Position numbers and translations under genes: made by a program
Notes under the pieces: generated by a model
Database searches by the model: none
What the model was told of the DNA's origin: nothing
Seen by the model: the letters and a program-made list of their open reading frames with translations, nothing else
Part shown: positions 16,109 through 41,275 of the stretch, one piece after another
How the letters are laid out: every line of letters starts with the position of its first letter
How positions within the stretch are numbered: the first letter of the stretch is position 1
NCBI GenBank assembly: GCA_963845755.1
Contig: CAWJTV010000011.1
Span: 768,001-832,000 of the forward strand
Origin: an uncultured Planctomycetota bacterium
Lineage (GTDB): Bacteria; Planctomycetota; Planctomycetia; Isosphaerales; Isosphaeraceae
DNA length: 64,000 nt
Direction: 5' to 3'

Positions 16109-17357
16109 ATGCACCCGACACGCCGCGAGATGCTTCGCCTGGGCCTGGGTTCGTCCGCGCTCCTGGCCTGCGGCCCGACCGTTCCGTTGTTCCTCGCCCG
16201 GTCCGCAAGTGCCATGGCGAACATGAAGGGTCGGATCCTCGTCGTGGTCCAGCTCGATGGGGGCAACGACGGGCTCAACACCGTGGTGCCGTATCGCGAT
16301 GACGAGTATCGCAAGCGGCGTCCCAAGATCCAGGTCGGGGCAGGGGAGGTCAAGAAGATCGACGACCACGTTGGGCTTCATCCGGCGCTCGAGGGCTTCT
16401 CGAAGCTGCTGGAGCAACAACGGCTGGCGATCGTGCAGAGCGTGGGCTATCCCAACCCGAACCGGTCGCACTTCGAGAGCATGGCGACCTGGCAAACCGC
16501 CCGGCTGAACCCGGACAAGGCGGCTCCCGGCTGGCTGGCCCAGGCGATCGACCGTCGTCCACGACCGGAGGGCGATGCGCCCGGCCTCCACATTCACGAG
16601 GCGATGCCGCTGCCGCAATCGCTGGCCGGCGGCCGACAAGTGATCCCTTCACTGGCCCGGCTGGAGCAGTTCCGCCGCCGGCTGGGCGTGCCCGAAGGAG
16701 CCGATCCCGCCGCGCAGGTCCAGGCCCTCGATCGCCTGGCCCGGCAGGACCGTGGCGAGCCCGGCTCGCTCCTCCAGTTCGTCGAGCGCTGCTCCGTCAT
16801 CACGTATGCTAGCAGCGCAGCGCCTGGAACGATTACATCAAGACAAGACGTCCGCATCCTCGAATTATCCCGATTTTTATGGCCTGGCCCGGCGGCTGCG
16901 CCTGATCTCCCAGTTAATCAAGGCCGGATTGTCAACCTCGATCTATTACACGCATCTCGACGGCTTCGACACCCACAGCGGCCAGCTCCAGCGGCACGCG
17001 GGCCTGTTGCGCGAGCTGGGTGGCTCACTCGGGGCGTTCCTCGACGACCTGGAGAAATCGGGCGAGTCGGAGCGCGTGCTGGTCCTCGTCTTCTCCGAGT
17101 TCGGCCGCCGGCTCGGCGAGAATGGCAGCGGCGGGACCGACCACGGCACCGCGGCCCCCGTCTTCCTACTGGGTCGGCCGGTCAAGTCCGGCCTCCACGG
17201 GCCATACCCCGACCTGACTTATTTGGACGACGGCGACCCCAAACACGCGATCGACTTCCGCGCCGTCTACGCGGCCGTGCTCGATCGGTGGCTGGGCGTC
17301 CCCCATCGCGAAGTCCTCGGCGCGGCGTTTGAGCCGGTGCCGGTGCTGCGGAGATGA
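16109..17357 (+). CDS. DUF1501 family protein, Tat signal (frameshifted)
   Basis: TRREMLR; LVVVQLDGGNDGLNTVVP; NRSHF; GFDTH; SEFGRR..ENGSGGTDHG; canonical partner of DUF1800. Confidence 0.9.
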
Positions 17358-17536: not shown

Positions 17537-20500
17537 TCACGACAGAAGGAACTCGAGGTCCTCGCGGGTGAGGTTCTGGATGACGCCCTTGTTGTCGGCG
17601 TTGAGGATCGCGTCGGCCAGGTCGCGCTTCTTCTGCTGCAATTCGAGGATCTTCTCCTCGACCGTGTCGCGGCAGATGAGGCGGTAGGCGAAGACATGCT
17701 GGGTCTGGCCGATGCGGTGCGAACGGTCGATGGCCTGGGCCTCGACGGCCGGGTTCCACCAGGGGTCGAGCAAGTAGACATATTCGGCGGCCGTCAGGTT
17801 CAACCCCAGGCCGCCGGCCTTGAGGCTGATCAGGAAGATCGGGCAGTCGGGATCGGTCTGAAACCGCTCGACCTTGGCGGCGCGGTTGCGGGTCCGGCCG
17901 TCCAGGTATTCGTAGACGATCTTCTCCTGGTCGAGCCGCTCGCGGACGATCGCCAGGAAGCTGGTGAACTGGGAGAACACCAGGACCTTGTGCCCCTCCT
18001 CGACGACTTCGGCGATCGACGGGATCAAGAGGTCGAGTTTGGCGCTGGCCTCGCCGCCCAGCTCGGCGCTGATCAAGGCCGGGTGGCACGCGGCCTGGCG
18101 GAGCCGCAACAACGCCTCGAGGACCTCGATCTTCGAGCGATTGAGCTCGGCGGAGTCCTTGCGCAGGAGGGCATCGCGGTAATGTTTCCGGAGCTCGTCG
18201 TAGCAACGCCGCTGGTCGGCTTCCATGTCGCAGTAGAGCGTCTGCTCGGTCTTCTCGGGCAGGTCCTGGACGACCTGCTGCTTGGTCCGGCGGAGGATGA
18301 ACGGCCGCAGCGACTTGGCCAGGAGCGTGCGGTCGATCTCCTCGAGCGTCCCGCTGCCGGCATACCGCTTGAAGACCGTGTCGCTGCCCAGCATGCCCGG
18401 GTTCAAGTACTCGAAGATCGACCAGAGCTCGCCGATATGGTTCTCGATCGGCGTGCCGCTCATGGCCAGCTTGAAGCGGCTGCGCAAGAGCCGGGCGGCC
18501 TTGGCCGACTGGCTTTCGGCGTTCTTGATCGCCTGCGCCTCGTCGAGGATCGCGTAGTCGAACTCGATCGGGGCCAGTTCGGCGATATCCGTGCGGACCG
18601 TGCCATAGGTGGTAATGATCAGGTCATAATCCGAGAACGACTCGCGGAGGGCGTGGCGGCCGGGCCCGGTATAGTCGAGCACGCGGAGCCGCGGCGTGAA
18701 CTTGGTGGCCTCCTGGTGCCAGTTGAACACGAGCGAGCGGGGGACCACCGCCAGCGACGGCCCCTTGGCCTGGCAGTGCGCCCGCCGCCTTTGCAACAGC
18801 GCCAGGACCTGGATCGTCTTGCCCAGGCCCATGTCGTCGGCGAGGATGCCGCCGAACCCGAACCGCTGGAGGTAGTCGAGCCAACCCAGGCCCTCGCGCT
18901 GATAGGGGCGGAGCTCGCCGTGGAAGCCCGGGGGCGAGTCCAGCGCCACGACCCCCTCGAACTGGCGGAGGTTCTGTCGCACCTTCTCGAACGCGGCGTC
19001 GACCCGGATCTCGGGCTGGGCGGCCAGGAGCGCATCGAGCATGCCGGCCTGGGCCGAGCTGAAGCGGAGGTTGCCGTTCTCGTCGCCGGTGGCCAGGTCG
19101 GCGAGCATGCCGTACTTCTTGAGCCATTCCTCGGGCAGCATGCCCATCGAGCCGTCGCCCAGCTCGATCATGGCCTCGCCGCGGCGGGCGGCGGCCAGCA
19201 GGTCGGGGAGGCTGACGCGCTGGTCCCCGTAATCCACGCCCCCCTCGAGCTCGAACCAGTCGATGCCCGTCGACAGGGCCAGCTTGAACTCGCCGGCCGG
19301 CCGGATCAGCTTCCCTTCGGCCTCGATCCGCCAGCCGACGGCGACCAGCTCCTTGGTCACCACGGGCATCCGCTTGGCCGGCAGCTCGAGGGTGCCCGGG
19401 TCCAACCGCGGGTCCTTCGCCTCGCGGAAGCCCAGCTCGAAGAGCTTGACGTCGGCGGCACTCTCCGTCCGCGGATCGCGGCGGATCACCAGCCCCAGCT
19501 CGGTCGAGACCGCCAGCGGCGTGGTCCGGCCGGCCGGGATCACGGCGCCGTCGTAGTCGAATTCCAGCTCGCCGATCAGCTTGTCGGAGCCCAGGCCCCA
19601 GTTCTGGCGCGGGGTCCGCAAGGTCAGGCAGGGCCGCGGCTTGGCGACGATCTCCTCGAGGTTGAGCGTCTCGACCAGTTCCAGCGGGGGCACGCGCGGT
19701 CTCGGCCAGGATCCGGCCGAGCATCAGGTCCTGCTGCGGCTCGACGAACGTGATCTCCTTCTCGTAACGGAGCCGGAGGATCCAGGGCATGACGCCCAGG
19801 TCGTCGAACCGCGCGGCACGGCCGACGCCCAGGACCAGCAGGCCGGGGAGCAGGACCAGCGGTTCGGAGAGGTCCATGCGGTTCTCGCCGCGGCGGAGCG
19901 TGCCCCGCCAGGCCCACCGCTTGCCGCCCGCCTCGGAGCGGACATCCAGGACGAACCGCCAGGGCTGCCCGTCATCCCAGCGCACCGTCGGCGGGTCATC
20001 TTCCCCCTCGGTACGCCTCAGCCGCAACCGGCCGGTCCGCGCCAGCCGCTCCACCAACCCGGCCTGGTCTTTCCGCAGCACGAACCGACGTGTGCCGCGC
20101 AGCGCGCGATCGGCCGCCGCTCGCGCCGCAGCCGATCGATAGGCCGGAGCCGGAACCGGAGTCGCACCCGCACCGTTGGTTGTCTCGCCGCCCACCGACG
20201 GGCCGACGCCCCCGGCCGACGGGAGATACCCGGTGTGCTGTGGGCTCCCCTGGGCCTCATCCAGCAGGGCCAGGATCAGGCGGTCCTCGGGATCGTACTT
20301 GACGTGGGCGGCCCGAGGCGCGTAATACCAGGGACGCAACGGTCCCCACTCGCCGGTCGTCTTGCGCTGGCGGCGGGCCAGATCGATGACCACCTGGTTT
20401 TGCGCCAGGGTGGCGGCCACGTCCAGGACGTAGACCAGCAGCCGCTTGCCGTTGCGGTTGACCGCCTTGACCCGGCCCGTGCCGGTACCCACGATCCCCG

Positions 20501-21097
20501 AGCCGGGTCTTGCCGCCTTGACCTTGGCCCGGCGGTCCCTCGGCGCGGGGCCCCGGTCGCCCTGGCTCCAGGGTCCGGCCTCGCCCAGCGGCTCACCCCG
20601 CATCCCCCGGTGGTCCTTGCGCGCGGCCGGGCGCCCCGGCCTCCGCTGCCACCCGCGGGGCGCGGCGAACCCAGGCCGACCACGCCCAGCTCCGAATCGA
20701 TCACGTACGGCGGCTGACGCTCCATCCCCGGCTCGTTGCGGATCTCGGGCAGCCCCGACGGCGACGTCGGCCGCCGCGGCGCCTCCACCACCAACCGCAC
20801 CGGGAACACCGGCGGCGATTGCAGCAGCCCCCGCGAATCGGCCAGCAGCAGGGTCGCCCAGAGGTGCTTGCACGGCTCGCCCTGCGGGCTGAAATACGGG
20901 CAGGTGCACGAGGCCAGCAGCTTCGAGCCTCGCAGCCGCACACGCACCCGGTACTTCGCCGTCCCGCGCACCCGGGCCACCAGCTCGCCGGCCCGGGCCG
21001 CCATCACGGTCACCCGGCCCTTGATGAAATACGACTGGCCCCGCGTCCGGACCGCGTCGCTGAAATTCCGCGCGACTTTCTGGGCTATCCCCATCAT
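17537..21097 (-). CDS. SWIM zinc-finger SNF2/DEAD-box helicase (frameshifted)
   Basis: CTCP..CKHLWA SWIM; LRPYQREG, LADDMGLGKT, DEAQAIKN, SGTPIEN, SLKAGGLGLNLT, DPWWNPAVEAQAIDRSHRIGQ. Confidence 0.92.
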
Positions 21098-21118
21098 ATG
21101 TCCGTCGTCCGTTTTTCC

Positions 21119-21366
21119 TTGGTCATTGGTCATGGGTCATTGGTCACTGGTCACCGGCTCAGGGCTTGGCGCGATGGGGGCCTTCTCCTCACCGGGCACC
21201 GTGGTCTCGAGGCATACGGGTAAGCGGGTCAGGAGTTCGTCTTTTGCTTCGTCGCGAGAGGACCGCCGAATTCTCCCGCCGCGCGGTTCGTCAAGACGGC
21301 CGAAAACCGACGGGGATCGGCATCATGATTTAATGATCAATGACCAATAACCAATGACAAGTGACG
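21119..21366. repeat. Inverted arrays of TGGTCAT/ATGACCA heptamer repeats
   Basis: tggtcat tggtcat gggtcat tggtcac tggtcac at ~21120-21154; aatgatc aatgacc aataacc aatgaca agtgacg at ~21332-21366. Confidence 0.75.
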
Positions 21367-21367
21367 A

Positions 21368-24030
<2,663 letters not shown>

Positions 24031-26979: not shown

Positions 26980-27210
26980 ATGAGGTGGTCCCCCTCATCG
27001 AGCTGGACGCTGCAATCGGCGATTGCCATCAACGACAAGGGCCCGATCCTCAGTTCCGGCATTGGTCCCGACGGCAAGCCAGGCACCTTGGTGCTGACGC
27101 CGGTCTCCAGGCCGCCGCCGGTCCCCGAACCGAGCACGCTGGCGTTCTTCGGCCTGGTGGCCGCGGTTGTAGCCCTTCGGAGGGCCAGGCCGCGTCGCCG
27201 AGCCGAACGG
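26980..27210 (+). pseudogene. C-terminal remnant of a HAF-repeat PEP-CTERM protein
   Basis: WTLQSAIAINDKG..LVLTP..VPEPSTLAFFGLVAAVVALRRARPRRR; no N-terminal part or signal peptide. Confidence 0.65.
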
Positions 27211-27238
27211 ATCGTCGGATCACGGAGGATTCGTCGCG

Positions 27239-28910
27239 ATGGGGGCTATGCGACTGGGAATGGTGCCGTTGGCCGGGCTGCTGGTCCTATCGGCCCTGGT
27301 ATTCTTGCCGGGGCTGGGCAGTTCGGGACGGTTGAGTTACCACGAGGCATTCGTCGCGCAGGGGCGCGCGGGAGATGCTGGACTCGGGAATCTGGGCCTA
27401 TCCGACGATCGGCGGATTGCCCTGGCTGGAGAAGCCTCCCTTGCCCTGGTGGCTGACCGCCGCGCTGGGCCGCCTGGCCGGCGGGGTGGACGAGACGGTG
27501 GCGCGGCTCCCCTCGGTGCTGGCCGCGACGCTGCTGGTGCTGGGGGTGGCCGCGGTCGCCGCGCGCGATTACGGAACGGGGATCGGCATGCTCGCCGGCG
27601 CCATTCAGGCGACGACAGCCTGGACGGTGTTGCGCGGCCGGCTGGCCGAGGCCGACATGCTGCTGGCCTGCCTGATCACCTGGGCGATCGTCGCCTTCGA
27701 CCGGATGCGCGATGACCCGGCCGATCCCGACGCACGGAGGGCGGGATGGAGTTGGGCGCGCTGGGCTTTCTTTGTGCTGCTGGGCGCCACCTCGCTGGTC
27801 AAGGGGATCGGCTTCGGCGCGGTGCTGATCCTGTCGGTCGTGGCGGCGGCCGTGCTCTGGCGTCGCGACGGCACCACGATGCGCCGGCTCCGGTTCCCGG
27901 CCGGCTGGGCCGTGGCGACGGCGTTGTCGATGGCGTGGCCATTGTCGATGGTGGTCTGGCACGGATTCGGGGCGCTGGCGCTCTGGACGACGCACGTGAC
28001 CGATCGACTGGCCGTACACCCGGGCGAGTTTGCCGGCGAGCGCTGGTGGGAGTACACCCCGGGCCTGTTGATCCAGGCGATGCCGTGGACGCCCCTGGCT
28101 GTGATCGGGGCCTGGCACTCGTTACGGCGGGCGATCCGGCCTCCTTCCCCCGAAGGAGGGAAGGTCATTGCCGGCGACCGCTTGCTCTGGGCCTGGTCGG
28201 CGGCGCCGCTGGCCTTGCTGGCGCTGGCCACCGTGAAGAACGCGCATTATGCGATCGCTGCGCAGGTCCCATGGTCGATCTGGGCGGCGCTGGGACTGGC
28301 GCGGGTGAGTAGCCGGCTGATCCGCCGCGGCCGGACGCCCCTTCAACTGCGGCGTCTCGCGGTCGCCGGCTTTGCCATCTTGGGATTCGTTACGGGATCG
28401 AGCTTCTGGCTACTCGGCCCCTGGGTCGACCGCCGCGGCGTCGAGTGGGCCTTCTACGAAACAGCGGCTCATCACCTGCCGCCCGGCGCGCCGCTGACCC
28501 TCCTCTACGACGACTGGGACCGCAACCCGTACGAGAGCCCGTTCGGCGCGTTCCCGCACGACCTGGCCGTCCGCTTCTTCTACCTCGGTCGCACCACCTG
28601 CTGGCACTCGGGAACGGAGGCTCTCGCGGCGCATCGACACGACACATCCCGTGGCACGCCGGCGAGCCCTGGACCGGCCGGACAAGACGAGAGTCGTACT
28701 CACGGAGCAGCCGATTTGCCCGCCATCTACGTGATCGGCCGCGATCGTGACCTGCCGGCGCTCGGGAATCTCGGCGGCGTGGAGGCCGTGGCCCAGGGAC
28801 CGAGCGGGCGCTTCGACCGGACGTATGCCTTATTCCGCATCATGCCCGCGACGAACCTCGATCCGGAGTCATCGGTCGCCCGCGCCGGCAATGAGGACAT
28901 TCCACGTTGA
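27239..28910 (+). CDS. ArnT-like glycosyltransferase family 39 (frameshift near 27365)
   Basis: HEAFVAQ..EMLDSG.W..PT..WLEKPPLPWW, ARLPS, multiple TM helices, LVKG. Confidence 0.88.
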
Positions 28911-30844: not shown

Positions 30845-30969
30845 CGCCCTCCGGTTGGGCGGAAGCGGGGGATCAACCTGCTAACGGCTCAAGGTGGTGA
30901 ATGAAACACAGGACTGGCCATGCTGTGCCGGCGGAGTCTTGCCCCGGCCACAGGGAGGTCCGGGACGGC

Positions 30970-32828
30970 CTAGGGTGCCCCGCTTGACGGGAAGTCGACG
31001 AAGAGAAGGCCGTTGACGACGTTATCCTTGAAGCAGGTCGGTATCGACGCGTTCACGTTCGGCGGCTCGGAGAACCTCAGGTCCACGATCCCCGTCGGCC
31101 GGCCGTCGAGCACGTCGAAGGCGATCTGGCAGAGTTCGGTCTCCTGGCCCGCCTGCCAGGGCCGCGGCGTGCCGGCGCCGTCGAAGAAGAGGATCAATAG
31201 ATCTTCACCCGACATGGTCCCGTTGAGGCTGACCGTGCCGGGCAGGCCCGCCCCGGGGTCAATTCTGACGAACCTGAGGGTGTCGGCGGGGAGGCGGACC
31301 TTCAGCTTCAACGAGCTGACGGCCACGTCGTTGCGCGGGCGCGCGATTACGCGGCAACGGGCCGGCTTGCCGAGCTGCACGCTGGCCGGGACCAGCCGGA
31401 GCGACTCTCCGAGGAGTTCCGACTGGCGGTTGAGGGTCTCCGAGAGCTTCTGCTGCAACTCCTTCAAGAGGACCATCAGGTTGGTACGCACGTCCGGCGG
31501 GGAGGTCCGCATGGTCCCGTAGAGTTCGAGGAGTACGTTCCTCCGGACGTCGAGCTCGGGCCTCAGCTCGCCGAGGGCCCTCAGGGCTGTCGCGTCGAGG
31601 CCGCACATGGACCGGAAGACCAGGCCGTCGCGACAACGCCACAGGAGTGTGGGGTTGGCCCAGGCCCGGTGGCCCTCGCCGAACTGCCCACGCTCGATGA
31701 CTTTCTTCCGGGCCCGGTTCAGCACCAGGTCGAGGCGTTCCCCGGAGAGCAACCCGCTATAGATCGCGCCCGAGAGGATCTCGGCGGCCTGCGACTCCAG
31801 GTCGAACTGCATCGCGATGACCGCGCCGACCGTCGTGTTCTTCAGCAAGTGGGCCGCGACCGAGTCGAAGCCGCGCTTCGACGACTTCGGTGGGCCTTGC
31901 GGGGCGGGCGCACCGGGTTGTTGGGCGCGGCGCAAGCGGTCAGGACCACGAGCCGCAGGTCGCGCGCGTCGTTGAGGTTGATCCCGAGATTCTCAGCACG
32001 GACCTTGTGCGACTGGGGGTCCGGGCCGTTCGCGACGGTCGGGTCAACGAACGCGAGGTACGCCTGGGGCAGATTGTTCTCGTCGGGCTCGACTCCGCCG
32101 TGTCCGGCGAAGTGGAGGACGTGCCAGGTGCCGGACCTGAGCCGGTTGTTGAGCTCCTCCAGCGTCGGCGGCTCACAGAACTCCAGTACGGCCTGCCCCC
32201 GGTCGACGGCCGGCTTCAGGGCGTTCTGGATCGCGAGCTTTTCCTTGGCCGTGTCGGCGGGCGGGAAGTCGGCCGGCGCCGAGACGACCGCCAGGTACCG
32301 GAGTGGCCCGGCGACGTCGAGGGGGCTGACGGTCGGGCGTTCCTCGAGCGCCCGGCTGATCGGGGTCGTGGTGTCGGTGGTGACGTACAGGGGAAGCGTC
32401 GCGGTCTCGGGCCGGCGGAGCAGCTCGAGCGGCAGGTCGGACAGCGCGGCCATGGTGTCCGAAGGCGTGTCGGCCTGGTCGGGGCTCTTGAAGACGACCA
32501 CGATGGGCAGGAGCGCGTGACTGCGGGCTTGCTCGTTATAGCATGCGTTGAGCGAACCCCTCAGGTCGGGCGTCAGGATCGAGTCCCAGACCTTGTGGCC
32601 AAGGTCGTGGAGGAAGTTCGAGTCGGCCCGGAACGCGGGGCTGCGGAGCTTCGCGAGGTCGGCGGCCGGCAGCTTCGAGGTCGTCACCCCCTTGTCGCCG
32701 ATCTCATCCGGGAGCGGGCAGACGTCGAGGTGGACGCGCCATTCCCGGGGCGTGGAGGTTGCTCCCGACGTTGGGACAGGGTCCGCCGGCGAGAGGATGA
32801 TGCGGAACTCGCTCGATTCGGTCGGCAT
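30970..32828 (-). CDS. CHAT (caspase-like) protease with helical linker and C-terminal cohesin-like beta-sandwich (frameshift near 31925)
   Basis: LSDLPLELL, HVLHFAGHG, LVVLTAC, AVIAMQF..WANPTL; tail ELCQIAFDV..IVDLRF. Confidence 0.82.
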
Positions 32829-32834
32829 CGGACG

Positions 32835-34085
32835 TCACTCCCGGGGGGTCTCGAGTTTCTTGGCGGCCTCCTCGGCGCGTGTCTTCTCTTGGATGAAGTG
32901 GGAGATCTGGCTCTGCGGCATCACGCCCCCGCTCTGACGGAGCTGATCGGCGAGCTGGTTCGTGAGCTTGGCCCGAAGCGCGGCTTCGATCTCCAGGGCC
33001 TTGCGCTGCGCCGGGTTGGCCGACGGCTGCCCTGGTCGGAAGTCGAAGGGGCGCCCGACCGGGTCGCGCAGGTAGAGGGCGAAGGCGGGAAGGTCGGGGA
33101 CCACCGCGTTGGCTGCGTCGGGCTGTCCAGCCCTCCAGGCCGCCTCGATGAGGTCGCACTGGGTGTGGGCGAGGGCCTTGTAGAACGCCTTCCAGAAGCG
33201 GGTCGAACGGTCACGGTTAACCTGGTACTGGTTCGCGACCATCGACGGCAGGCTGAGGGCGGACGACGACTGGGCGAGCCGCGGGAATCCGAGGATCTGG
33301 TAGTTCCTGACCTCCGACGGCGAACTCAGGCAGAGCAGGCCGACCGACGGGGGCAGCATCCCGGCGAGCCGCGAGGGGGTCACCCAGTCGGACAGCTTGC
33401 GCTCGTCCTCGCAGACCAGGCACCCCTCCCCACGGCTCAGCGCGGCGTGGCCGATGAAGTGCAGCACATGGGGCTGGTGTTCGGCCAAGGCCCGGGACAG
33501 CGGCAGCATGATGGGGACGCTGAATAGCGCTTCGAAGCCAGCTTCCCTGATCGCCGAGCGGGCGATCTCGATCTCTTCGCGCGTGTCGTAGCCCACCTTG
33601 ACATCCGGTGCGCTGGCCACGACCATCACCCGAAGTTTGGAGACAGCCTGCGGCGGAGGCGCCAGCCGGCGCGGGACCCACCTCGCGAGGCGATAGGCCG
33701 GCCGCAGCGCGAATGGTGGCCCGGCGCCATCGGTCAGCCACTCCCAGGGAAGCTCGTAGGGCACATGGGAGCCGCTGCTGATCTTGATCCGCAGCACCAG
33801 GGCGCCCTCAGGCCCCGGGGGCGATAGGATAGCCCGCCGTACCGCCTCCGGCAGCGCGTCCCAGAGGCGGGGGCCGCACTCGGGCGGGGGTACGCCTCGG
33901 ATACCGCCGTCCGGCCCGCGGCGTTCCCCCTCACGTCGCCACAGGCCCCCGGGGACGAGAAACGACCCGACATCTTCCGCCCGCTCCTCGAACAGGTCCT
34001 TCTCGGTGCGGCCGAGAAGGACGTGATAGGCGCCTTCCCGGCGCGGGGAGGGCGAGAAGTCGAGACAAAGCTCACGGAATGGCAT
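32835..34085 (-). CDS. CHAT-domain protein lacking the canonical catalytic Cys (pseudo-caspase)
   Basis: ELPWEWL, HVLHFIGHA, but LLCLSSP where L-[ST]-A-C is expected; FWKAFYKAL; FALY. Confidence 0.75.
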   Translation of the reverse strand: MPFRELCLDFSPSPRREGAYHVLLGRTEKDLFEERAEDVGSFLVPGGLWRREGERRGPDGGIRGVPPPECGPRLWDALPEAVRRAILSPPGPEGALVLRIKISSGSHVPYELPWEWLTDGAGPPFALRPAYRLARWVPRRLAPPPQAVSKLRVMVVASAPDVKVGYDTREEIEIARSAIREAGFEALFSVPIMLPLSRALAEHQPHVLHFIGHAALSRGEGCLVCEDERKLSDWVTPSRLAGMLPPSVGLLCLSSPSEVRNYQILGFPRLAQSSSALSLPSMVANQYQVNRDRSTRFWKAFYKALAHTQCDLIEAAWRAGQPDAANAVVPDLPAFALYLRDPVGRPFDFRPGQPSANPAQRKALEIEAALRAKLTNQLADQLRQSGGVMPQSQISHFIQEKTRAEEAAKKLETPRE

Positions 34086-34123
34086 GGGCGTTGACCCCTT
34101 CGTTGCGGCGCATCGGGCCGGGC

Positions 34124-35600
34124 TCAGAGCTTGTCCGCGAACCCTGAAATGAACTGCTTGTGACGGGCGCTGTTGTTGCCCCAGCGAAGGCCGAACTGGC
34201 CGTTGGCTCGGATCAGCTCCGCCGTGCGCTCGCCGACCTTCTTGAGGTTGTCGCTCAGGTCGCCCGCCTCGGCCGCGTCGTTCGCCGCCAGCCGTGCGGC
34301 GGCGGCGCAGTACCGTGGCCGGAGCTGGCTCGGCCGGTTCTGGCCCGACCTCAGGTAAGCGGCCGCGTTGCGGATCATCGCGTCGCTGCCGGCGGTGTAA
34401 GGGATGAGCTCGCGGACTGTTTTCAGCCTCAGAGCCGGCCGTTTCGAAATCCATGAGGGCGCGGAACACCGCCGGGAAGTCCGCCTGGAACTTGCGCAGC
34501 GGCTCCGGGTCGCCGTACGTGGCCCTCCAGGCCGCGTCGATGCGGTCGGCGTGCCTGGCCACCACGTCGCGCTGCGCTGCGGCGGCCGGCCCGTCGGGGA
34601 TGAGGGTCCGGATATAAGTGGTGTTCATGAGGATCCGCACATAGTGCGTCGGGTGCGGGTCATCCTTGTCGTAGCTCGTCACCTCCTTGGCGGGCAAGAG
34701 CAGCAGGCGCATCAGGGTGTCGGTGTAGGCCGGTCCGACGAGCTGGAGTGCGACGAGGTCGGCGAAGGTCTCGGCCTGCCAGTCCTTCCAGACGTCGACC
34801 CGGTCGTTGGGCGCGCCCGCGGCCCTGAGCTCCGCCTCCAGGGCTTGAAGCAGCTCGTCGCGCAGGGCGAGGTCGGATTCCAGGTCGTGCCCGACCTCAT
34901 GCGCGAGGGTGAGGAAGTCCCAGGGGGTCTCGGCGTGATCCCAGGGGAGCTCGATGACCGGGATCGGCGTGCGGTACTCACCGCGTCGGGGCCGCCTGAG
35001 GCCCTCCGGGTAGCTGCCGCGAACCCACGTGGCCGGCGAGAACTCGGACGTGAAGTAGCACAGGGGCGGCTCGCGGAAGTCGTCCCGCTGGATGATCCCG
35101 GCCGTCACGGCCTTCTCCATGGTGTCCCGGTAACAGTCGAAAGCGATGGTGTCGGCCAGCCAGAGCGAATCCTTGTAGCTCGGGTCGAACCGGAGCTGGA
35201 GCTTGCTGCGGAAGAAGTCCCAGACGAACTGTGACCGGAGGATCTGGTTCACCAGCTCGGACGACTGGTCGAGGTATTCCGTCAGTCCGCCGGCCGGCTG
35301 AAGTCCGTTGATCAGGTCGGCCTGGCCGTCCTTGAACACGTCCATGAGGATCTTGACGGCCTCGATCTGGCTGAAGTGGACGTCCATATCCAGGATCGTC
35401 CGGGCGCGGGTCTGCCAGTAATAAACTTCTGTGGGGATGGCGCTGACGCGCCGCCTCAGCTCCTCCTTGTGGACGGTGAGGACGGCCTTGAGCGGCTCGT
35501 CGGCCGTCTCGGCCAGGACGTCCGCCGAGGGGAGCGAGACACCGGCCAGGCCGATGGCCGCGCCGACCTGGCAGAGAAACTCACGACGGTCTGTCTTCAT
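34124..35600 (-). CDS. HEXXH zinc-metallopeptidase-like protein with Tat-like signal (frameshift near 34440)
   Basis: MKTDRREFL + hydrophobic stretch; LAHEVGHD, AETFAD, DPHP. Confidence 0.72.
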
Positions 35601-36139
35601 GAGGTCCACCCTCCGGAGGATCCAGCGTCATCGACAGGTCCTTGGCTCGCACGATGCGTCCGGCTCGAAGCAGGAGGCCGTGAACGGGTGCCGTGCCGGA
35701 TCATCCTCCCGAGCGGACGTCGCCCAGGGACGACCGGCAAGGCGTGGCTACGCTTCGCCGACGCGCTTCTCTAGGGTAGTCGGGAAAGCGCGGCTTTGCC
35801 CGCCAATTCTAGCCCAATGCTAGATATTGGTTAATGTGAACATTTGTAATATAATTGACAGCAGCCCCGATCTCGGCGCCGTTCGGCATGTAAGAACAAC
35901 TTGTATCGCACCCGGGCCGGGAATTGTCGAATTGAAGCCGAATCCCCTGCACTACGGGGAAAAAAGGCTGTCGCCGCGGATGGCCGATACACGATGAGCA
36001 ATACGTCGTCCATCGAATCGACCGTGATTTCCATGGCTTCAACACCGGTCTCCGTGCTATCCCGGAGAGTGCAAATCCTACCGCCCGTGCGAAAGTGCCG
36101 CACGGCTCGACCAATCGGCACGCTGGAGTCACGCCCATC

Positions 36140-37683
36140 ATGAAATATGCGCTCCACGATCTGACGCCGCTGTTGGCCTCCGCGGTGATGACGGTCCTGT
36201 GCGCCTCGGCAGTCGGCCTCCAGTGGCCGGTCCCTTCGCCCCAAGCCGTGACTGCGGCGGCCCAAGCAGGCGAACGCCGGAGCCTCTTGCTGATCACGGC
36301 GGGCCCCGGCCTCGACTACCGGAAGCTGGGCCCGGCCGTCGCCATCCACGACCACTATTATGAGAGCGAAGGGGGTACCTTGCGACATCGTCTCCTGGCC
36401 GTGCCCCGGAATGCCGATCTCTCCGGGCTCGAGGCGCTGCCACTGACGTACAGGGTCCTCGATCCGAGGCCCGCCGCGGGTGGCTACGCCTGGGTGTCCG
36501 GGGCGGCTCGGAACCGGCCTGGGATCGAGCGGGCGGGGGGCCGTGTGCTCCTGGAACGGGCCGGCTCGTCGCACCTGGTCGCGCTGCCAGAGCCCGGTGG
36601 GGAACGACGGCTGGCGGAGGTGCTCCCGTCCGCGCGTGTCCGGGCGATCGACCTCGCCCGGGAAATCCGCCCCGACTGGATCGCGCCGGGCGCCCCACGC
36701 GTCGACCTGCGCCGTAGGGCCGCAGGCCGTAACGCCCAGGTCGAGGCCCTGCTTGCGGGCGTAAGCGACGACGACTGCCGCCGGCTCCTCGAACAGCTCA
36801 CCGGCGCCACGCCGATCACGCTCGGCACGGAGTCGCGGTTGATCCGCACCCGGTTCGCCGGCGGAGACGATATCGTCCCGCTGACGAACTGGCTGGCGGA
36901 GGAGTTCCGGCAGATGGGACTGGACGCCCGGATCGACACGTTCCCCTCGTCGCAGGGCCGCGACCTGCCCCAGGTCGAGGCCACTCTCGTGGGGGCCGAC
37001 CTGAAGGATGAGTTCGTGCTGATCACGGCCCACCTCGACGCCGTCCGCGGGACCCCCGGCGCCGACGACAACGCCTCGGGGATCGCCGCGATGGTCGGCG
37101 CGGCTCGCCGGCTCGCCGGGCAGACCCTGCGTCGTTCCGTCCGCTTCGTCGCCTTCAATGACGAGGAGCAGGGGCTGGTCGGCAGCGTCAACTACGCGCG
37201 TCGCCTCGCCTCCGAGGGCGCGCGATCGCGGGCGTCCTCAACATGGACATGGTCGCCTACGACCGGGACGGCGACGGACGCATCCAGCTCCAGGCCAACG
37301 GAACGCCCGAAGGCGACCGGCTCTGCGAGGCGCTCACGACCGGCGCCCGCACCTACGCGCTGGCCCTGAACCTCGTGAAGGTGGTCGACCCGGAGGAGTC
37401 CAGCGATTACGCTGCGTTCTGGCGCGTCGGCATTCCGGCGATCAACATCGGTGACGAGTATTTCCTGTGCAAGGGCGACTGCGTCACGCCGCCCGACCGC
37501 GGGATCACGCCACCGAAAGGGGATTTTACCCCGTGCTATCACCGCCCGTGCGATCGCCTTGACGACCCGGGATTCCGCCGCGACCTTGTGCTCGCGGTGA
37601 CGCGCATGCTCATCGCCGGGGCGAGCGAACTGGCCGAGCTCCAGGCACCCGGCAGCGACCATTCGTCGAAGCCGTCGCGTTGA
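36140..37683 (+). CDS. M28 family aminopeptidase, secreted (frameshift near 37220)
   Basis: AHLDAV..PGADDNASG..FNDEEQGLVGS..NMDMV..SD..YH. Confidence 0.88.
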
Positions 37684-37739
37684 ACGAGGGCGTGCGAGGG
37701 ACAACGTCATCCTCCGAACTCCAGAAAAGGACCGAACCC

Positions 37740-38245
37740 ATGCGACCTCCCTTGACGATCGCTGCGTGTCTCGCCCTCATCGCCACCCCCGGCCTCGCGC
37801 AGCGCAACGGGTTGTTTACCTCGTTCGCCACGCCGAGAAGACCGATGACGCGACTGACCCCTCGCTGACCGACGACGGGGTCAAGCGGGCCAAGACGCTG
37901 GCCCGCATGCTGGGCCAGGCGCGCGTTGACGCGATTTACGTCAGCGGCGCCCGCCGTACCCAGCAGACCGCCAAGCCGCTGGCGACCGCCCTGGGAATCA
38001 CCCCGGTCGTCATCGGCGACGGCGACCCCCAGAAGACATTCGACGCGATCCGTAAGGACCACGCCGACGACGTCGTGCTCGTCGTGGGCCATTCCGACTC
38101 GGTGCCAGACATGATCAAGCTCTGGGCGCCGGGGGCCGACGCCAAGATCCAGGATCCCGAATTCGACAAGCTGTTCGTCGTCGTGCCCAGGCCCTCCGGC
38201 CCTGCGGGTTGGACGATGTTCCGCTACCGGATCGACTCGCCCTGA
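37740..38245 (+). CDS. Histidine phosphatase (phosphoglycerate mutase/SixA-like), probably secreted
   Basis: VYLVRHAEK..L...G..RA..RTQQT..LVVGHS. Confidence 0.85.
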
Positions 38246-38290
38246 GCGCGGGGCATCCGCGTGGTTTTCCAGAGTCGACATCGGCCAGAC

Positions 38291-38875
38291 TCAGAAGTCC
38301 TGGGCCATCTCGATGGCGGCAACGAACTCGCGGCCCAGCCGACGGGTCAGGGCCGTCCGCTGCTCGTCGTTGAGGGCCTTGAGGACATTCTCGCGGGCCA
38401 GCTCGAACGCCTGCTTCTTGAGTTTCATCAGTCCCTCCTTCGAGTGCCTCTCGGCCGCCAGGCGCCTCTGGAGCGTGGAGAGAACGCGCGCGTTGTCCGC
38501 CCGGGCCGCGCGTAACTTCTTCTCCTGTTCCGGCGCGAGCCGCAACATGCCGAGGTACTCGGTCGGCAACGACCCGCGGATGACCTGAACCTGGCCACGG
38601 ATCTCGTCGAACCGCTTCCTCTGGGACGGGGTGAGGACCTCGGCCGTGCGCCGGTCGAGCTCCGACGGCGGGATCTTTCCGTCCGCGGACCGCTCGAACA
38701 GGCGCCCCAGAGTCTCCTTCTGGGGCAGCTCGAGCTTGAGGTCCTCCTGCACCTGGGCGTATCGGAGCAGGTAGGGCCACTTGGCGGGCGTGGTCTGCTG
38801 GCCCGGCGCGGGAGCTGACAAACCGGTCGTCACAAGGAGCGCCGCACCGAGGATTGCTGATCGGCTAACTCTCAT
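38291..38875 (-). CDS. Secreted helical hypothetical protein (LTxxQ/Spy-like repeats)
   Basis: Signal peptide; VQEDLKL..QK, VLTPSQRKRF, LNDEQR. Confidence 0.6.
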   Translation of the reverse strand: MRVSRSAILGAALLVTTGLSAPAPGQQTTPAKWPYLLRYAQVQEDLKLELPQKETLGRLFERSADGKIPPSELDRRTAEVLTPSQRKRFDEIRGQVQVIRGSLPTEYLGMLRLAPEQEKKLRAARADNARVLSTLQRRLAAERHSKEGLMKLKKQAFELARENVLKALNDEQRTALTRRLGREFVAAIEMAQDF

Positions 38876-39100
38876 CGATCCCTCCTGTTGAGATTGACGT
38901 CGGCTCGCACGCGCTCCGGGAGGCGGAGCGATCCGCGAGGAAGCGTCGCCGGAAAAACCGGTGGCAAATTCCTCCCGGCCCCGCGGACCAACGGCCCGAC
39001 GCCCCGCCCCCGGTCGAGGACCTTGAGCGGGGCGTCGATGGTGGGTTGGAGTTTTCCTCCGTAGGATCCCTGCCGCATGCCGCGCATCGGCGGGATCCTT

Positions 39101-39347
39101 GATTCCGATTCCGGATTCCGGATTCCCGAAACCTCCTTCATCCGGAATCCGGAATTGGGAATCGTGAATGCCTCTTCGGCTGCGGCCGAAGGCCGCGTTA
39201 GAGTCGTCCTCCGTAGGCTCCCTGCGCCGTGCCGCGCCTCTGGGGATTCCGAATTCCGGATTCGCGATTCCGGATTCCCGGATCATTCCCCTTCGGGAAT
39301 CCGGAATCGCGAACGGGAATATGGATTGCGGCCGAAGGCCGCATTAG
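39101..39347. repeat. Two repeat units of GGATTCC/GGAATCC heptamer hairpins, each ending TGCGGCCGAAGGCCGCRTTAG
   Basis: Units at about 39101-39201 and 39244-39347. Confidence 0.7.
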
Positions 39348-39367
39348 GGGGAAACCCTCCGCTCGGT

Positions 39368-40454
39368 TCATCGCCCGGCCGCGCGGGCGGCGCGACGGAT
39401 GTCGGCGCGGAGCGTGGACGGGATATCATAGAGCTTCGGCCGGAAGGTCGTCGTCTGTTCGCGGGTCCGCCGGATCTGACCGGAAGTAAACTCGCTCATG
39501 CAGGCGTCGTCTGTATAATTCATGAAGTTATGAACGGGGTCGAGCCACGGCTTCGTCGAATCGCTCGGGTCCATGTCGCCGGAGCAGGAGTCCGGCACCG
39601 GCGAGGGGCAGCCGAAGTTCACCTGGTGCGGGGGAGTGTCCTTCACGTCGTCGTCCGGAGGCACGCAACCGCCCTGGAACGTGTGGAACAGGCCCACCCA
39701 GTGGCCCACCTCGTGCGTGGCCGTCTGGCCGAGGCCGAACGTGCCGCCCGCGGGGTTGGCGGAGCCGTCCTCGGCCGGCAGGCTCGTGTGCAGGATGACA
39801 ACCCCGTCCATGTCGACGTCGGCGGCGAGGTCCGACGGGAAGGTCGCCCACCCGAGCAGCCCGTCACCGAGGTTGGCCGTGTAGAGATTCAGGAACCGTT
39901 CCGGGTCCTTACCCAGAGTCGTCTTGGCCTCTCGTTCTTCCGCACTGAGGTGGCCCATCGTATACCAGTCCGCGCGGTCGGCGTCGGCGTCAACGTCGGT
40001 GTAGTCGGGGTCGCCGGCCAGCGCGAAATTGAATCCGAAGGTCCGGAATTCTTTGTTCAGCACGTTGATCTGCTGATCAATGCGGGCGCGGCTGACCTTG
40101 CCCTCATTCCCCTTGTGGATGACGTGGAAGGCGACGCGGATCGTCACCTTGTTCGAGGGATTGAGCGAGTCTTCCACCCCGGCGACCCGGCGGACCGCCT
40201 CCGCCGCCAGCCGTGCTCGGCGCATTTGGTTGTCGGTGGGAATCGGTGTGTCGCAACGCCGGCCCGACTCGACGAACTCGCGTACCGTCAACTGCTTGCC
40301 TGCAACCTCCACCTTCCCGGCCTGATCTTGCGGGGCCCCTTGCGCTCGGGCGGCTCGCCATCGGGCGGCCGAACGGCGCCAATGCGAGCAAGCCGAGGGC
40401 CACACCTGTAGGTACGGCAAGCAACAGCGCAAACTTCCTGGCCCTGTACATCAT
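39368..40454 (-). CDS. M43 (pappalysin/ulilysin-like) zinc metalloprotease, secreted (5' frameshift)
   Basis: VAFHVI, LLGWATFP, DGVVI, HEVGHWVGLFHTF, NFMNYTDD, FTSGQ. Confidence 0.92.
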
Positions 40455-41004
40455 GGTTGTCTCCCTTTTCCCGATCAGGAAAGCCTGTGCGACTGCCGAA
40501 ATGAACGCGATGCCCCTCCCGCTCGGCAGATTCAGAGGGGGCAGCTCCAAACCGAGGTGATGGTCCCATCGCGGTCGAGAGTGACGAGATCTCCGCCATG
40601 GAGGCCGAATTGCACGAAGAGATGGTTCGAACAGGCCGTGCGTCGCGCCTTCTCCCGGGCGTCAGCGCGATTGCACAGTCGGCGAGCGACAGAACGGACG
40701 GCGAACGCCGGGAGAATCCCGATCGGGATTCTCCCTTCGAGAGCGTCCACTCGGCGCTCTCGCTTTCGAACGGGCGAGGCCATCGCGGCTGGCTTCTCAG
40801 CGACACCTGTCGGCCACGGCCGGCGATTGAGCCGGCGGGAGTTCGAAACCGGTCAAGGAATCCGTGTCAGATAGGTCTGGGTCTCACCGACGGCGACGAT
40901 ACTCTCCGTCCCGGCGATCGGTGGATCGCGGCGTAACACGCTCAGGGTGCGCTGAAACCGATCGTCGATCCAATATTCCTATCGAAATCCCGTCCCCGGT
41001 CGCG

Positions 41005-41275
41005 TCACGGCCCGGAGACGAACTCGACCACGACACTGGGGATATCGCGGGCGGTGTCGGGGACTCGCCCCTGGCGCTCGGGCAAGGTCAGGTCCAGGGT
41101 GGTCCCCTGGGAATGATTCGCCCGATAGTTCCTCAGCATCACACCCAGTTCTTCATCCGGATCGCTCTCGGCTTCCGACGGGATCGGTGTTCCGGCCACG
41201 ACTCCGCTGATCAACTCGTGGCCGTGCCGTTCGTCGTAGGTTGTGACGGCGTCCAGATCAGCCGGATCAATCCTC
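41005..41275 (-). pseudogene. Uma2-family fragment
   Basis: ELISGVV..P.PSEAESDPDEELGVMLRNY..PSVVVEFVS followed by early stop; internal deletion apparent. Confidence 0.55.

Follow-up and report, generated by a model that had tools for sequence, protein, structure and literature searches.

The three genes and their products

The stretch of DNA analysed here (the window; 64,000 nucleotides (nt), positions 768,001 to 832,000 of contig CAWJTV010000011.1 in assembly GCA_963845755.1, from an uncultured member of the Isosphaeraceae, Planctomycetota) contains three co-directional genes on its minus strand, at 30970-35609. The first encodes a zincin-type metallopeptidase, and the second and third encode two CHAT proteins, which we call CHAT-A and CHAT-B. 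Sequence comparison with 69 loci containing a related zincin (21 genomic, 48 metagenomic, labelled L), searched with five pieces of the window, identifies this trio as a conserved, unnamed module that is distributed across several phyla. An earlier note, made from the sequence alone, had described tightly packed genes, and we measured the same gaps that it gave, 38 nt between genes 1 and 2 and 6 nt between genes 2 and 3. It had also read HEVGH, ETFAD and HP motifs and a twin-arginine-like leader in gene 1, HFIGH together with LSSP in gene 2, and HFAGHG and LTAC in gene 3; all of these were located in the translations (Table 1).

From its sequence, gene 1 looks like an active zinc metallopeptidase of an unclassified family. 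With its first piece as the query, 122 proteins were retrieved at an expectation value (E) ≤ 0.001 (these relatives are labelled P); none of the 120 that were listed carries a Pfam domain, and all are annotated as hypothetical. A profile of 60 members matches 3926, 1821 and 893 cluster representatives at E ≤ 1e-3, 1e-10 and 1e-30, respectively. No Pfam family matches the window's own gene-1 pieces at E ≤ 0.1, and the best Pfam result for the 60 members is Zn_peptidase, in four of them and at E of at least 0.039. No NCBIfam model matches the members, the sequences of PDB chains yield only matches to the HEXXH motif (E at least 0.76), and the ESM Atlas returns only unnamed clusters (score 0.86). 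Across the 60 aligned sequences, the His, Glu and His of HEXXH, an Asp five residues on, and the Glu and Asp of ExxAD are invariant, and gene 1 possesses both the HEXXH motif and the downstream Glu that are required of a zincin of the gluzincin type.

This downstream Glu within ExxAD is shared with the gluzincins of families M13, M48 and M4. Gene 1 is probably gluzincin-like, and the Glu of ETFAD, by analogy with the gluzincin pattern, is probably the third zinc ligand. The relative P0001, 61% identical to the window's first piece, gave an AlphaFold model with a predicted local distance difference test score (pLDDT) of 91.1. When this model was compared with known structures using VIA-align, M13, M48 and M4 enzymes were among the best rows (Z 5.5-6.8, approximately 170-190 residues, region ~140-395), but unrelated helical proteins reach scores as high as these, which all have Z < 7, and for this reason the assignment is probable rather than settled. 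The individual comparisons are with neprilysin 4cth (M13; Z 6.7, root-mean-square deviation (rmsd) 4.6, 180 residues aligned), PepO 4iuw (M13; Z 6.7, rmsd 4.2, 183 aligned), BepA 6sar (M48, BepA/Ste24; Z 6.2, rmsd 5.3, 169 aligned) and thermolysin 4m65 (M4; Z 5.6, rmsd 4.5, 185 aligned). The family differs from the gluzincins in that no Pfam, NCBIfam or PDB family matches it at the level of sequence, and in its N-terminal three-helix bundle (residues ~35-138) and C-terminal helical domain, both of which are specific to it. The same genome carries a second, distant member of the family (G000:C36:279948-280544, loci L081 and L090; E = 3.3e-20, an open frame of 445 amino acids (aa)), beside which no recognisable partner gene was found with the queries used.

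CHAT-A is matched by Pfam CHAT (PF12770) with 30.6 bits against a cut-off of 24 (E = 3e-7). Its AlphaFold model (mean pLDDT 87.9, predicted template modelling score 0.90) places two helices, residues 358-384 and 391-412, after the protease domain, where the earlier note had described a short helical segment. Foldseek returned 60 PDB matches to this model at E ≤ 0.001, identifying a caspase-like fold; the best is the SAVED-CHAT structure 8tl0 (E = 2.5e-8), and the matches include Csx29 8eey (E = 9.9e-8), the anti-sigma factor DdvA, separase, MALT1 and caspase-9. The His of the catalytic His-Cys dyad is present in HFIGH, and Pro stands at the position of the Cys. We assign the Pro to this position because, in a BLASTP alignment of the two paralogues of L004, LSTC of CHAT-A aligns with MTAC of CHAT-B; in the same alignment HYIGHAG is paired with HFVGHGA. 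No Cys motif is encoded in any other frame at 33270-33370, and the change from Cys to Pro is therefore not the product of a local double frameshift. Gene 2 of the window probably has the fold without being an active cysteine protease.

A different residue, the Cys of LLCL, was tried as a catalytic residue and rejected. The earlier note had named it as the Cys that might occupy the catalytic position; in the model it sits in the middle of a predicted beta-strand (residues 250-254), distant relatives have G, S or A in its place, and a position further downstream is the one that aligns with the catalytic Cys of CHAT-B. Its place within a strand and its replacement in distant relatives make it unlikely to be catalytic.

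Across 33 CHAT-A sequences, both residues of the dyad are kept in 17 (most of the close relatives), His is lost in one (L032), Cys is replaced by Pro in five (the window, P0122, P0123, P0124 and L030), and both residues are lost in ten, which constitute a distant clade. A fragment outside this set, P0121, also reads CLSSP. The forms with Pro are limited to the clade whose zincin bears a twin-arginine-like leader (the window, P0001/P0123, P0002/P0122 and L030). The description of gene 2 as a pseudo-caspase beside an active caspase, as the earlier note had it, is hence right for this genome and for the distant clade but does not extend to the whole family, because about half of the sequences retain the dyad. 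Judged from this pattern, the chemistry of CHAT-A appears to be dispensable, whereas its presence usually does not.

In CHAT-B an N-terminal domain precedes the CHAT domain, whose His-Cys dyad is intact; behind it come a helical segment and, at the C-terminus, a beta-rich tail. Pfam CHAT matches its first piece with 46.6 bits, above the cut-off, and its second piece at E = 0.0045. Both catalytic residues are kept in all 21 full-length relatives that were aligned, with H, G and C at nearly invariant positions, in agreement with the earlier description of gene 3 as an active-type CHAT protein. The cohesin-like tail that had been ascribed to it is borne out in part: Pfam Cohesin (PF00963) matches five of 22 gene-3 relatives weakly, at the same part of the profile (E from 4.4e-5 to 2.3e-3, one of them at the cut-off with 24.1 bits), but the window's own tail has no Cohesin match at E ≤ 0.1. 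In L036 the tail is replaced by an EAD2 domain (24.6 bits against a cut-off of 23.8).

Complex modelling of the CHAT pair, which had been proposed as a check, was carried out on the orthologous pair of L004 and predicts a heterodimer. The interaction prediction score from aligned errors (ipSAE) is 0.79 (runs 0.77, 0.79 and 0.79) against 0.00 for the best of three controls; the runs agree in at least 83% of contacts, and the partner pLDDT is at least 79. The mark applied to this score is reached by 116 of 157 solved complexes and by two of 215 mismatched pairs, which is only a rough guide here, where our own alignments were used. The most confident contacts join helices 401-438 of CHAT-B to helices 366-403 of CHAT-A, that is, the helical segments that follow the two protease domains; further contacts are found between the protease domains and with the N-terminal domain of CHAT-B, and the tail of CHAT-B lies outside the interface. 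Genes 2 and 3 encode paralogous CHAT proteins that are predicted by modelling to pair through their post-protease helices and through contacts between the protease domains.

Table 1. Positions of the three genes, their motifs and associated features in the window
Feature	Position	Strand	Description
Gene 1	34124..35609	minus	Zincin-type metallopeptidase, unclassified family; ~495 aa if read through; one-base frameshift
Gene 1 start codon	GTG at 35609; stop at 34124	minus	
Gene 1 leader	35496..35609	minus	Residues 1-38; twin-arginine-like; RREFL at 35588-35574 (residues 8-12), then mildly hydrophobic stretch
Gene 1 HEVGH	34901-34887	minus	Predicted zinc-binding and catalytic motif, invariant in the 60-sequence alignment
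Gene 1 ETFAD	34772-34758	minus	Probable third zinc ligand (Glu) of a gluzincin-type site; E275 and D279 invariant
Gene 1 DPHPTHY	34661-34641	minus	
Gene 1 frameshift	34423..34442	minus	...GAAACGGCCGG... has one surplus base, which shifts reading out of the 35609 frame and into the frame ending at 34124
Gene 2 (CHAT-A)	34085-32835	minus	416 aa, intact, caspase-like fold
Gene 2 HFIGH	33461-33447	minus	His motif, kept
Gene 2 CLSSP	33332-33318	minus	CLSTC in relatives; Pro at the catalytic Cys position
Gene 2 C-terminal helices	32850..33014	minus	Residues 358-412; predicted to dock onto CHAT-B
Gene 3 (CHAT-B)	32828-30970	minus	~615 aa if read through; one-base frameshift
Gene 3 HFAGHG	32114-32097	minus	Catalytic His motif
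Gene 3 LTAC	31943-31932	minus	Catalytic Cys motif
Gene 3 frameshift	31923..31931	minus	Apparently one base missing in GCCGCGCCC; start of a variable loop behind the catalytic Cys
Gene 3 tail	30973..31419	minus	Homologous to tails that weakly match Pfam Cohesin in some relatives
Sigma-70-like promoter, weak	35806..35834	minus	~200 nt upstream of gene 1; 9/12 positions; consensus match only

Interrupted reading frames in genes 1 and 3

Genes 1 and 3 are each broken by one frameshift, as the earlier reference to frameshift-corrected proteins had implied, and both breaks are placed by alignment with intact relatives. In gene 1, 19 full-length relatives align with the two pieces, which flank the block ALMD...LK..TVR..P and have one surplus base between them. 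This frameshift is the reason why the list of open reading frames (ORFs) contains a 924-aa ORF that fuses the front of gene 1 with gene 2. In gene 3 the break comes 2-3 codons past the catalytic Cys. At this point two intact relatives, P0129 (614 aa) and P0130 (603 aa), read C-A-G-A-Q..., and the window matches them in frame one up to LTACA and in frame two from AQQPGAP.

Both frameshifts are probably errors of the assembly, and the genes are probably intact in the organism. The window holds further breaks of the same kind. The gyrB gene (21368-23978, minus) is split into two ORFs in different frames, with HATPase_c in 23184-23978 and DNA_gyraseB (from profile position 38), Toprim and the C-terminal domain in 21368-23152. 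An M28 peptidase gene (36095-37683, plus) is split at ~37200, with profile positions 4-79 and 139-176 matched in different frames. A DUF1501 ORF (16109-17332, plus) also looks split, matching only positions 4-104 of a profile of 390, and at 17537-21133 (minus) a SWIM zinc finger and an SNF2 helicase are encoded in different frames, perhaps as parts of a single gene that looks split too. Because an essential gene, gyrB, is broken and at least one other, unrelated gene is split alike, indel errors in the assembly are the explanation that we favour.

Alternatively, the cluster may be decaying in this organism, with real frameshifts, with the replacement of Cys by Pro as a mark of lost function, and with no functional product being made. 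Two of the three genes are indeed out of frame, the closest database proteins (P0067 and P0121, 89-93% identical) are likewise fragments, and metagenome contigs from three DNA-type runs of one study, beside which a run search listed no RNA run, cover 12, 4 and 5 of the 30 bins of 30900-35700 and reach neither frameshift site. However, the reading is open on either side of each break and aligns with relatives over the full length, the codon-position GC bias runs on across both breaks in the frame plot (which we use only as support), and the replacement of Cys by Pro is common to six related sequences (the five aligned and the fragment P0121) in a protein that is otherwise conserved. Considered together with the split gyrB and M28 peptidase genes and the seemingly split DUF1501 and SWIM/SNF2 reading frames, these observations make decay very unlikely.

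Conserved neighbourhoods and exchangeable partners

To define the close loci, we required that both gene-1 pieces match, which is the case in 28 of the 69 loci; related loci among them are not independent. Where at least 1400 nt of sequence lie downstream of a close zincin, gene 2 is next in 19 of 21 loci; in the other two, L036 and L037, whose contigs are near-identical, the zincin is directly followed by a relative of gene 3. The start of gene 2 is present in four of the seven close loci with less than 1400 nt downstream, and both gene-3 pieces are found in all 16 close loci with at least 3300 nt. The three genes therefore recur together elsewhere, as the earlier note had proposed to check, and in several loci they abut or overlap by 4 nt. 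In G221 the zincin gene is divergent from the gene-2-like and gene-3-like genes, and in L025 the gene-3 relative is on the opposite strand; the link between zincin and CHAT proteins survives rearrangement. The carriers are labelled as Acidobacteriota, Myxococcota, Pseudomonadota, Chloroflexota and a metagenome-assembled genome labelled Bacteroidota, with Pyrinomonadaceae, Solibacteraceae, Vicinamibacterales, Polyangiaceae, Ramlibacter, Anaerolineales and Rikenellaceae (the metagenome-assembled genome) as the more detailed labels.

Among the distant zincins, which are 25-37% identical, the partner is exchanged. The zincin gene is followed by a gene for a patatin-like phospholipase in L018, L019, L053 and L054, by one for a PGAP1/DUF676-like alpha/beta-hydrolase in L021, by DUF7379 in L024, and by an EAD7-CHAT gene in L020. 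In L014, L016, L045/L046, L052, L061 and L063 it is accompanied by a fully degenerate CHAT-A together with an active CHAT-B. In P0282 and P0291 (~1200 aa) a zincin is fused behind a CHAT-like region whose nearest ESM Atlas clusters are all CHAT (score 0.96, 175 of 256 features); a profile comparison of CHAT-B with P0282 gave no signal, and the label CHAT-like is based on the Atlas result together with motifs recognised by eye.

Several neighbours of the trio and of the zincin are recorded here as separate observations. At the start of P0282, residues 48-126 show a weak match to a CBS domain (E = 0.005 to 4gqw), which hints at ligand sensing and is all that a PDB sequence search with this protein returned. 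In four loci of Pyrinomonadaceae (L007:11587-12797, L008:11561-12879, L014:11613-12899 and L016:11535-12732) the trio is followed by an ORF of 99-146 aa and by an M10/astacin-like peptidase without a signal; the two products share an N-terminal segment (IDGE..Y.V.GD..GDEDDL) and may form an adaptor pair. Directly upstream of the zincin gene in L011:5688-6974 and L013:5484-6860, on the same strand and at gaps of 11 and 125 nt, lies a gene for a phospholipase D with two HKD motifs and no signal, which may be a fourth component in these two loci.

The distribution of the zincin is patchy, with six of 301 sampled genomes of the phylum carrying it, this one included. A search of G001, a genome of the same genus, did not find gene 2; there, the 3-keto-disaccharide hydrolase gene at the syntenic place is followed within ~270 nt by a match to window positions 40533-41253. 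Because the flanks nearly adjoin there, ~9.7 kb of the window (~30846-40532) have no counterpart at this place in G001. This variable segment comprises the trio, the M28 peptidase gene, a histidine phosphatase gene, an ORF of 331 aa without known function and an M43 peptidase gene. The trio is flanked by the oppositely oriented 3-keto-disaccharide hydrolase and M28 peptidase genes, and its wider neighbours are the M28 and M43 peptidases, the histidine phosphatase and the 3-keto-disaccharide hydrolase. A scan for the sigma-70-like consensus found one site (Table 1) against 0.4 expected.

Elsewhere in the window, two copies of a palindromic element (39045-39161 and 39197-39313; 74% alike) are rich in GGAATCC/GGATTCC and contain internal hairpins; short matches at many places in G001 mark this element as a dispersed repeat. 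At 26980-27456 (plus) a small protein carries a PEP-CTERM sorting motif (Pfam E = 9.8e-6), and beside it, at 27375-28910, lies a PMT-type glycosyltransferase gene that starts at profile position 42, with its N-terminus maybe in another frame.

A subset of the zincins carries an N-terminal leader, which bears on where the module acts. The RRxFL motif, with a mildly hydrophobic stretch after it, is common to seven zincins of one clade (the window, P0001, P0002, P0005, P0112, L025 and L026) and constitutes a putative twin-arginine translocation (Tat) leader. Together with a signal-like N-terminal sequence in the gene-3 relative of L025, it suggests that the leader-bearing clade has taken an extracytoplasmic turn, in which a folded complex may be co-exported. 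One rival account of the trio is accordingly that, in this clade at least, it forms an exported protease complex: the zincin would cross the membrane by the Tat route, perhaps together with the folded CHAT pair, and would act on envelope or external proteins in nutrition, surface processing or inter-bacterial antagonism. Consistent with such a role are the M28 and M43 peptidases in the variable segment, the M10/astacin-like, trypsin-like and subtilase genes that adjoin relatives, and the weak Cohesin matches of gene-3 relatives. Cohesin domains are typical of extracellular scaffolds. However, most zincin relatives start ~40 residues later, 13 of the 19 aligned having neither the leader nor any other N-terminal extension; no signal is present in CHAT-A or CHAT-B of the window or in their relatives P0122-P0124, P0129 and P0130; the neighbouring M10-like and phospholipase D proteins of other loci have none either; and co-export of the CHAT pair is pure inference. 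We consider this rival account unlikely.

A candidate protease relay and its relation to known systems

The interpretation that we prefer, and to which we assign roughly even chances, is that the trio is one conserved proteolytic module that acts as a relay in biological conflict, in defence or in cell death. CHAT-B would be the cutting enzyme, with CHAT-A as its regulator or scaffold, a pairing like that of caspase-8 and cFLIP. The zincin, as the constant partner, would control exchangeable effectors through proteolysis, most likely by cleaving and thereby activating them. Within the module, the loop that follows the Cys of CHAT-B is a candidate cleavage site. In the clade of the window the leader suggests that the zincin is exported, perhaps taking the signal-less CHAT pair with it. 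We place the module in the conflict class, as a putative anti-phage or cell-death system, because the partners of the zincin are swapped, because variants with EAD domains exist, because a PADLOC model named peptidase_U41 is matched by six of the 60 zincin members (P0053 and distant members; best E = 1.3e-14), and because the distribution is patchy and the segment has no counterpart at the syntenic place in G001.

A regulatory or housekeeping protease complex without any part in conflict would offer another explanation, with site-specific cleavage in a developmental or stress pathway as its task. Separase and the cyanobacterial CHAT protein HetF control pathways through cleavage of this type. 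Separase and the anti-sigma factor DdvA are among the fold matches of CHAT-A, the gene-3 relatives of L004 and L015 match the NCBIfam HetF model weakly (E from 4e-12 to 5e-12), and the carriers are large-genome, environmentally versatile bacteria (14.3 Mb in the present case). On the other hand, the HetF score of 45 bits is far under the cut-off of 1200, a patchy family that is missing from most sampled genomes and a trio that was not found in a same-genus genome are unlike a core regulator, and the exchange of zincin partners for phospholipases and hydrolases does not fit a housekeeping complex well. We consider this explanation unlikely.

Several observations weigh against the conflict relay. 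In PADLOC-DB v2 the zincin piece of the window has no match at E ≤ 0.1, and the close zincins P0001 and P0073 are unmatched as well; the CHAT parts have only weak matches to SAVED_CHAT and no SAVED domain. The system behind peptidase_U41 was not found in the literature as far as it was covered, which included the main text of the 2021 PADLOC paper and one supplement of a 2022 paper. No EAD domain was detected in the window's proteins at E ≤ 0.1, and no phage, mobile-element or known defence gene adjoins the trio in the window. Foldseek returned nothing at E ≤ 0.001 for the P0001 model, and the VIA-align scores do not separate the zincin from unrelated helical proteins. The CHAT pair that was modelled has an active-type CHAT-A, unlike the window's own pair. 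The metagenome contigs stop short of both frameshifts, which may yet reflect real pseudogenisation. The zincin leader and the signal of L025 point to an extracytoplasmic role in this clade that is a poor fit with a cytoplasmic suicide protease, and the leader is the chief observation at odds with a simple module of that type.

The conflict relay can be drawn in a more specific form, which we offer as possible, with chances well short of even. The trio would then be an undescribed immune or death protease relay in which the zincin cleaves the CHAT-A/CHAT-B heterodimer to sense or transmit a signal, a repeatedly degenerating pseudo-caspase restrains or positions the active caspase, the zincin has been reused for phospholipases and other hydrolases, and the complex hitch-hikes on the Tat pathway in the present clade. 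If this is true, prokaryotes would possess an equivalent of the cFLIP/caspase-8 pair, or of separase with its pseudo-protease domain and its active one.

A role as executioners in bacterial immunity is increasingly recognised for CHAT and other caspase-like proteases, which in known examples act under a nucleic-acid or nucleotide sensor. Here the constant partner is a member of a large zincin family that is without any model (3926 cluster representatives), and the caspase-like part is a pair of paralogues, one of which has been losing its catalytic residues in several lineages. Should the trio be a defence or death system, it would represent a new control logic, with a metalloprotease coupled to a heterodimer of pseudo-caspase and active caspase, and would provide a bacterial model for the regulation of active caspases by inactive paralogues. 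The idea is directly testable, because intact trios, such as those in loci labelled Ramlibacter (L009), Polyangiaceae (L006) and Anaerolineales (L015), are available from several phyla and are only ~4.5 kb long.

The earlier note did not recognise the trio as a named system, and we likewise obtained no match to one in PADLOC, Pfam, NCBIfam or the literature covered. In that literature, which comprised listings, abstracts and passages of PMC8195603 and PMC7159879, no such trio is described. Comparison with individual systems brings out partial likenesses. In the SAVED-CHAT/PCaspase cascade of type III CRISPR-Cas, two caspase-like proteins act one after the other; the trio shares with it the CHAT fold, its structure 8tl0 being the best match of CHAT-A, and the weak PADLOC SAVED_CHAT matches lie over the protease part of the trio's CHAT proteins. 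It differs in that the trio has no SAVED sensor domain in Pfam searches and no cas or cyclase genes beside it, having a zincin instead, and in that its CHAT proteins are paralogues predicted to heterodimerise. In Craspase, the type III-E gRAMP with TPR-CHAT/Csx29, a CHAT protease is likewise restrained by a partner, and Csx29 chains are among the best fold matches of CHAT-A (E from 1e-7 to 1e-5, template modelling score ~0.5 on the query); the trio has no TPR repeats, gRAMP or RNA guide, and its partners are a second CHAT protein and a zincin.

Caspase-8 is paired with cFLIP in eukaryotes, and separase combines a pseudo-protease domain with an active one. The trio resembles both in pairing, in a predicted heterodimer, an active enzyme of the caspase fold with a catalytically impaired paralogue, and separase chains are among the CHAT-A fold matches. 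Unlike in these systems, CHAT-A keeps both catalytic residues in 17 of 33 sequences, the predicted CHAT interface consists largely of C-terminal helices, and the trio has no death-fold adaptor domains.

In the EAD-coupled conflict systems of multicellular-type bacteria, as described by Kaur et al. (2020, eLife, PMC7159879), one component stays constant while its hydrolytic partners are exchanged and EADs serve as adaptors; the same paper reports that catalytically inactive caspase domains are frequent in effector positions. Trio variants with EAD7 (L020) and EAD2 (L036) on the CHAT protein, and similar carrier phyla, relate the module to the systems described there. Nevertheless, the window's proteins have no EAD and no STAND, MoxR-vWA or other NTPase (nucleoside triphosphatase) core lies beside the trio, which sets it outside this class, and the only zincin system in the consulted parts of PMC7159879 is a peptide-processing pair rather than a trio. 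Among known kinds of system, the module would belong with the caspase-like protease modules of bacterial conflict systems, to which the zincin family and the predicted CHAT heterodimer would be new additions.

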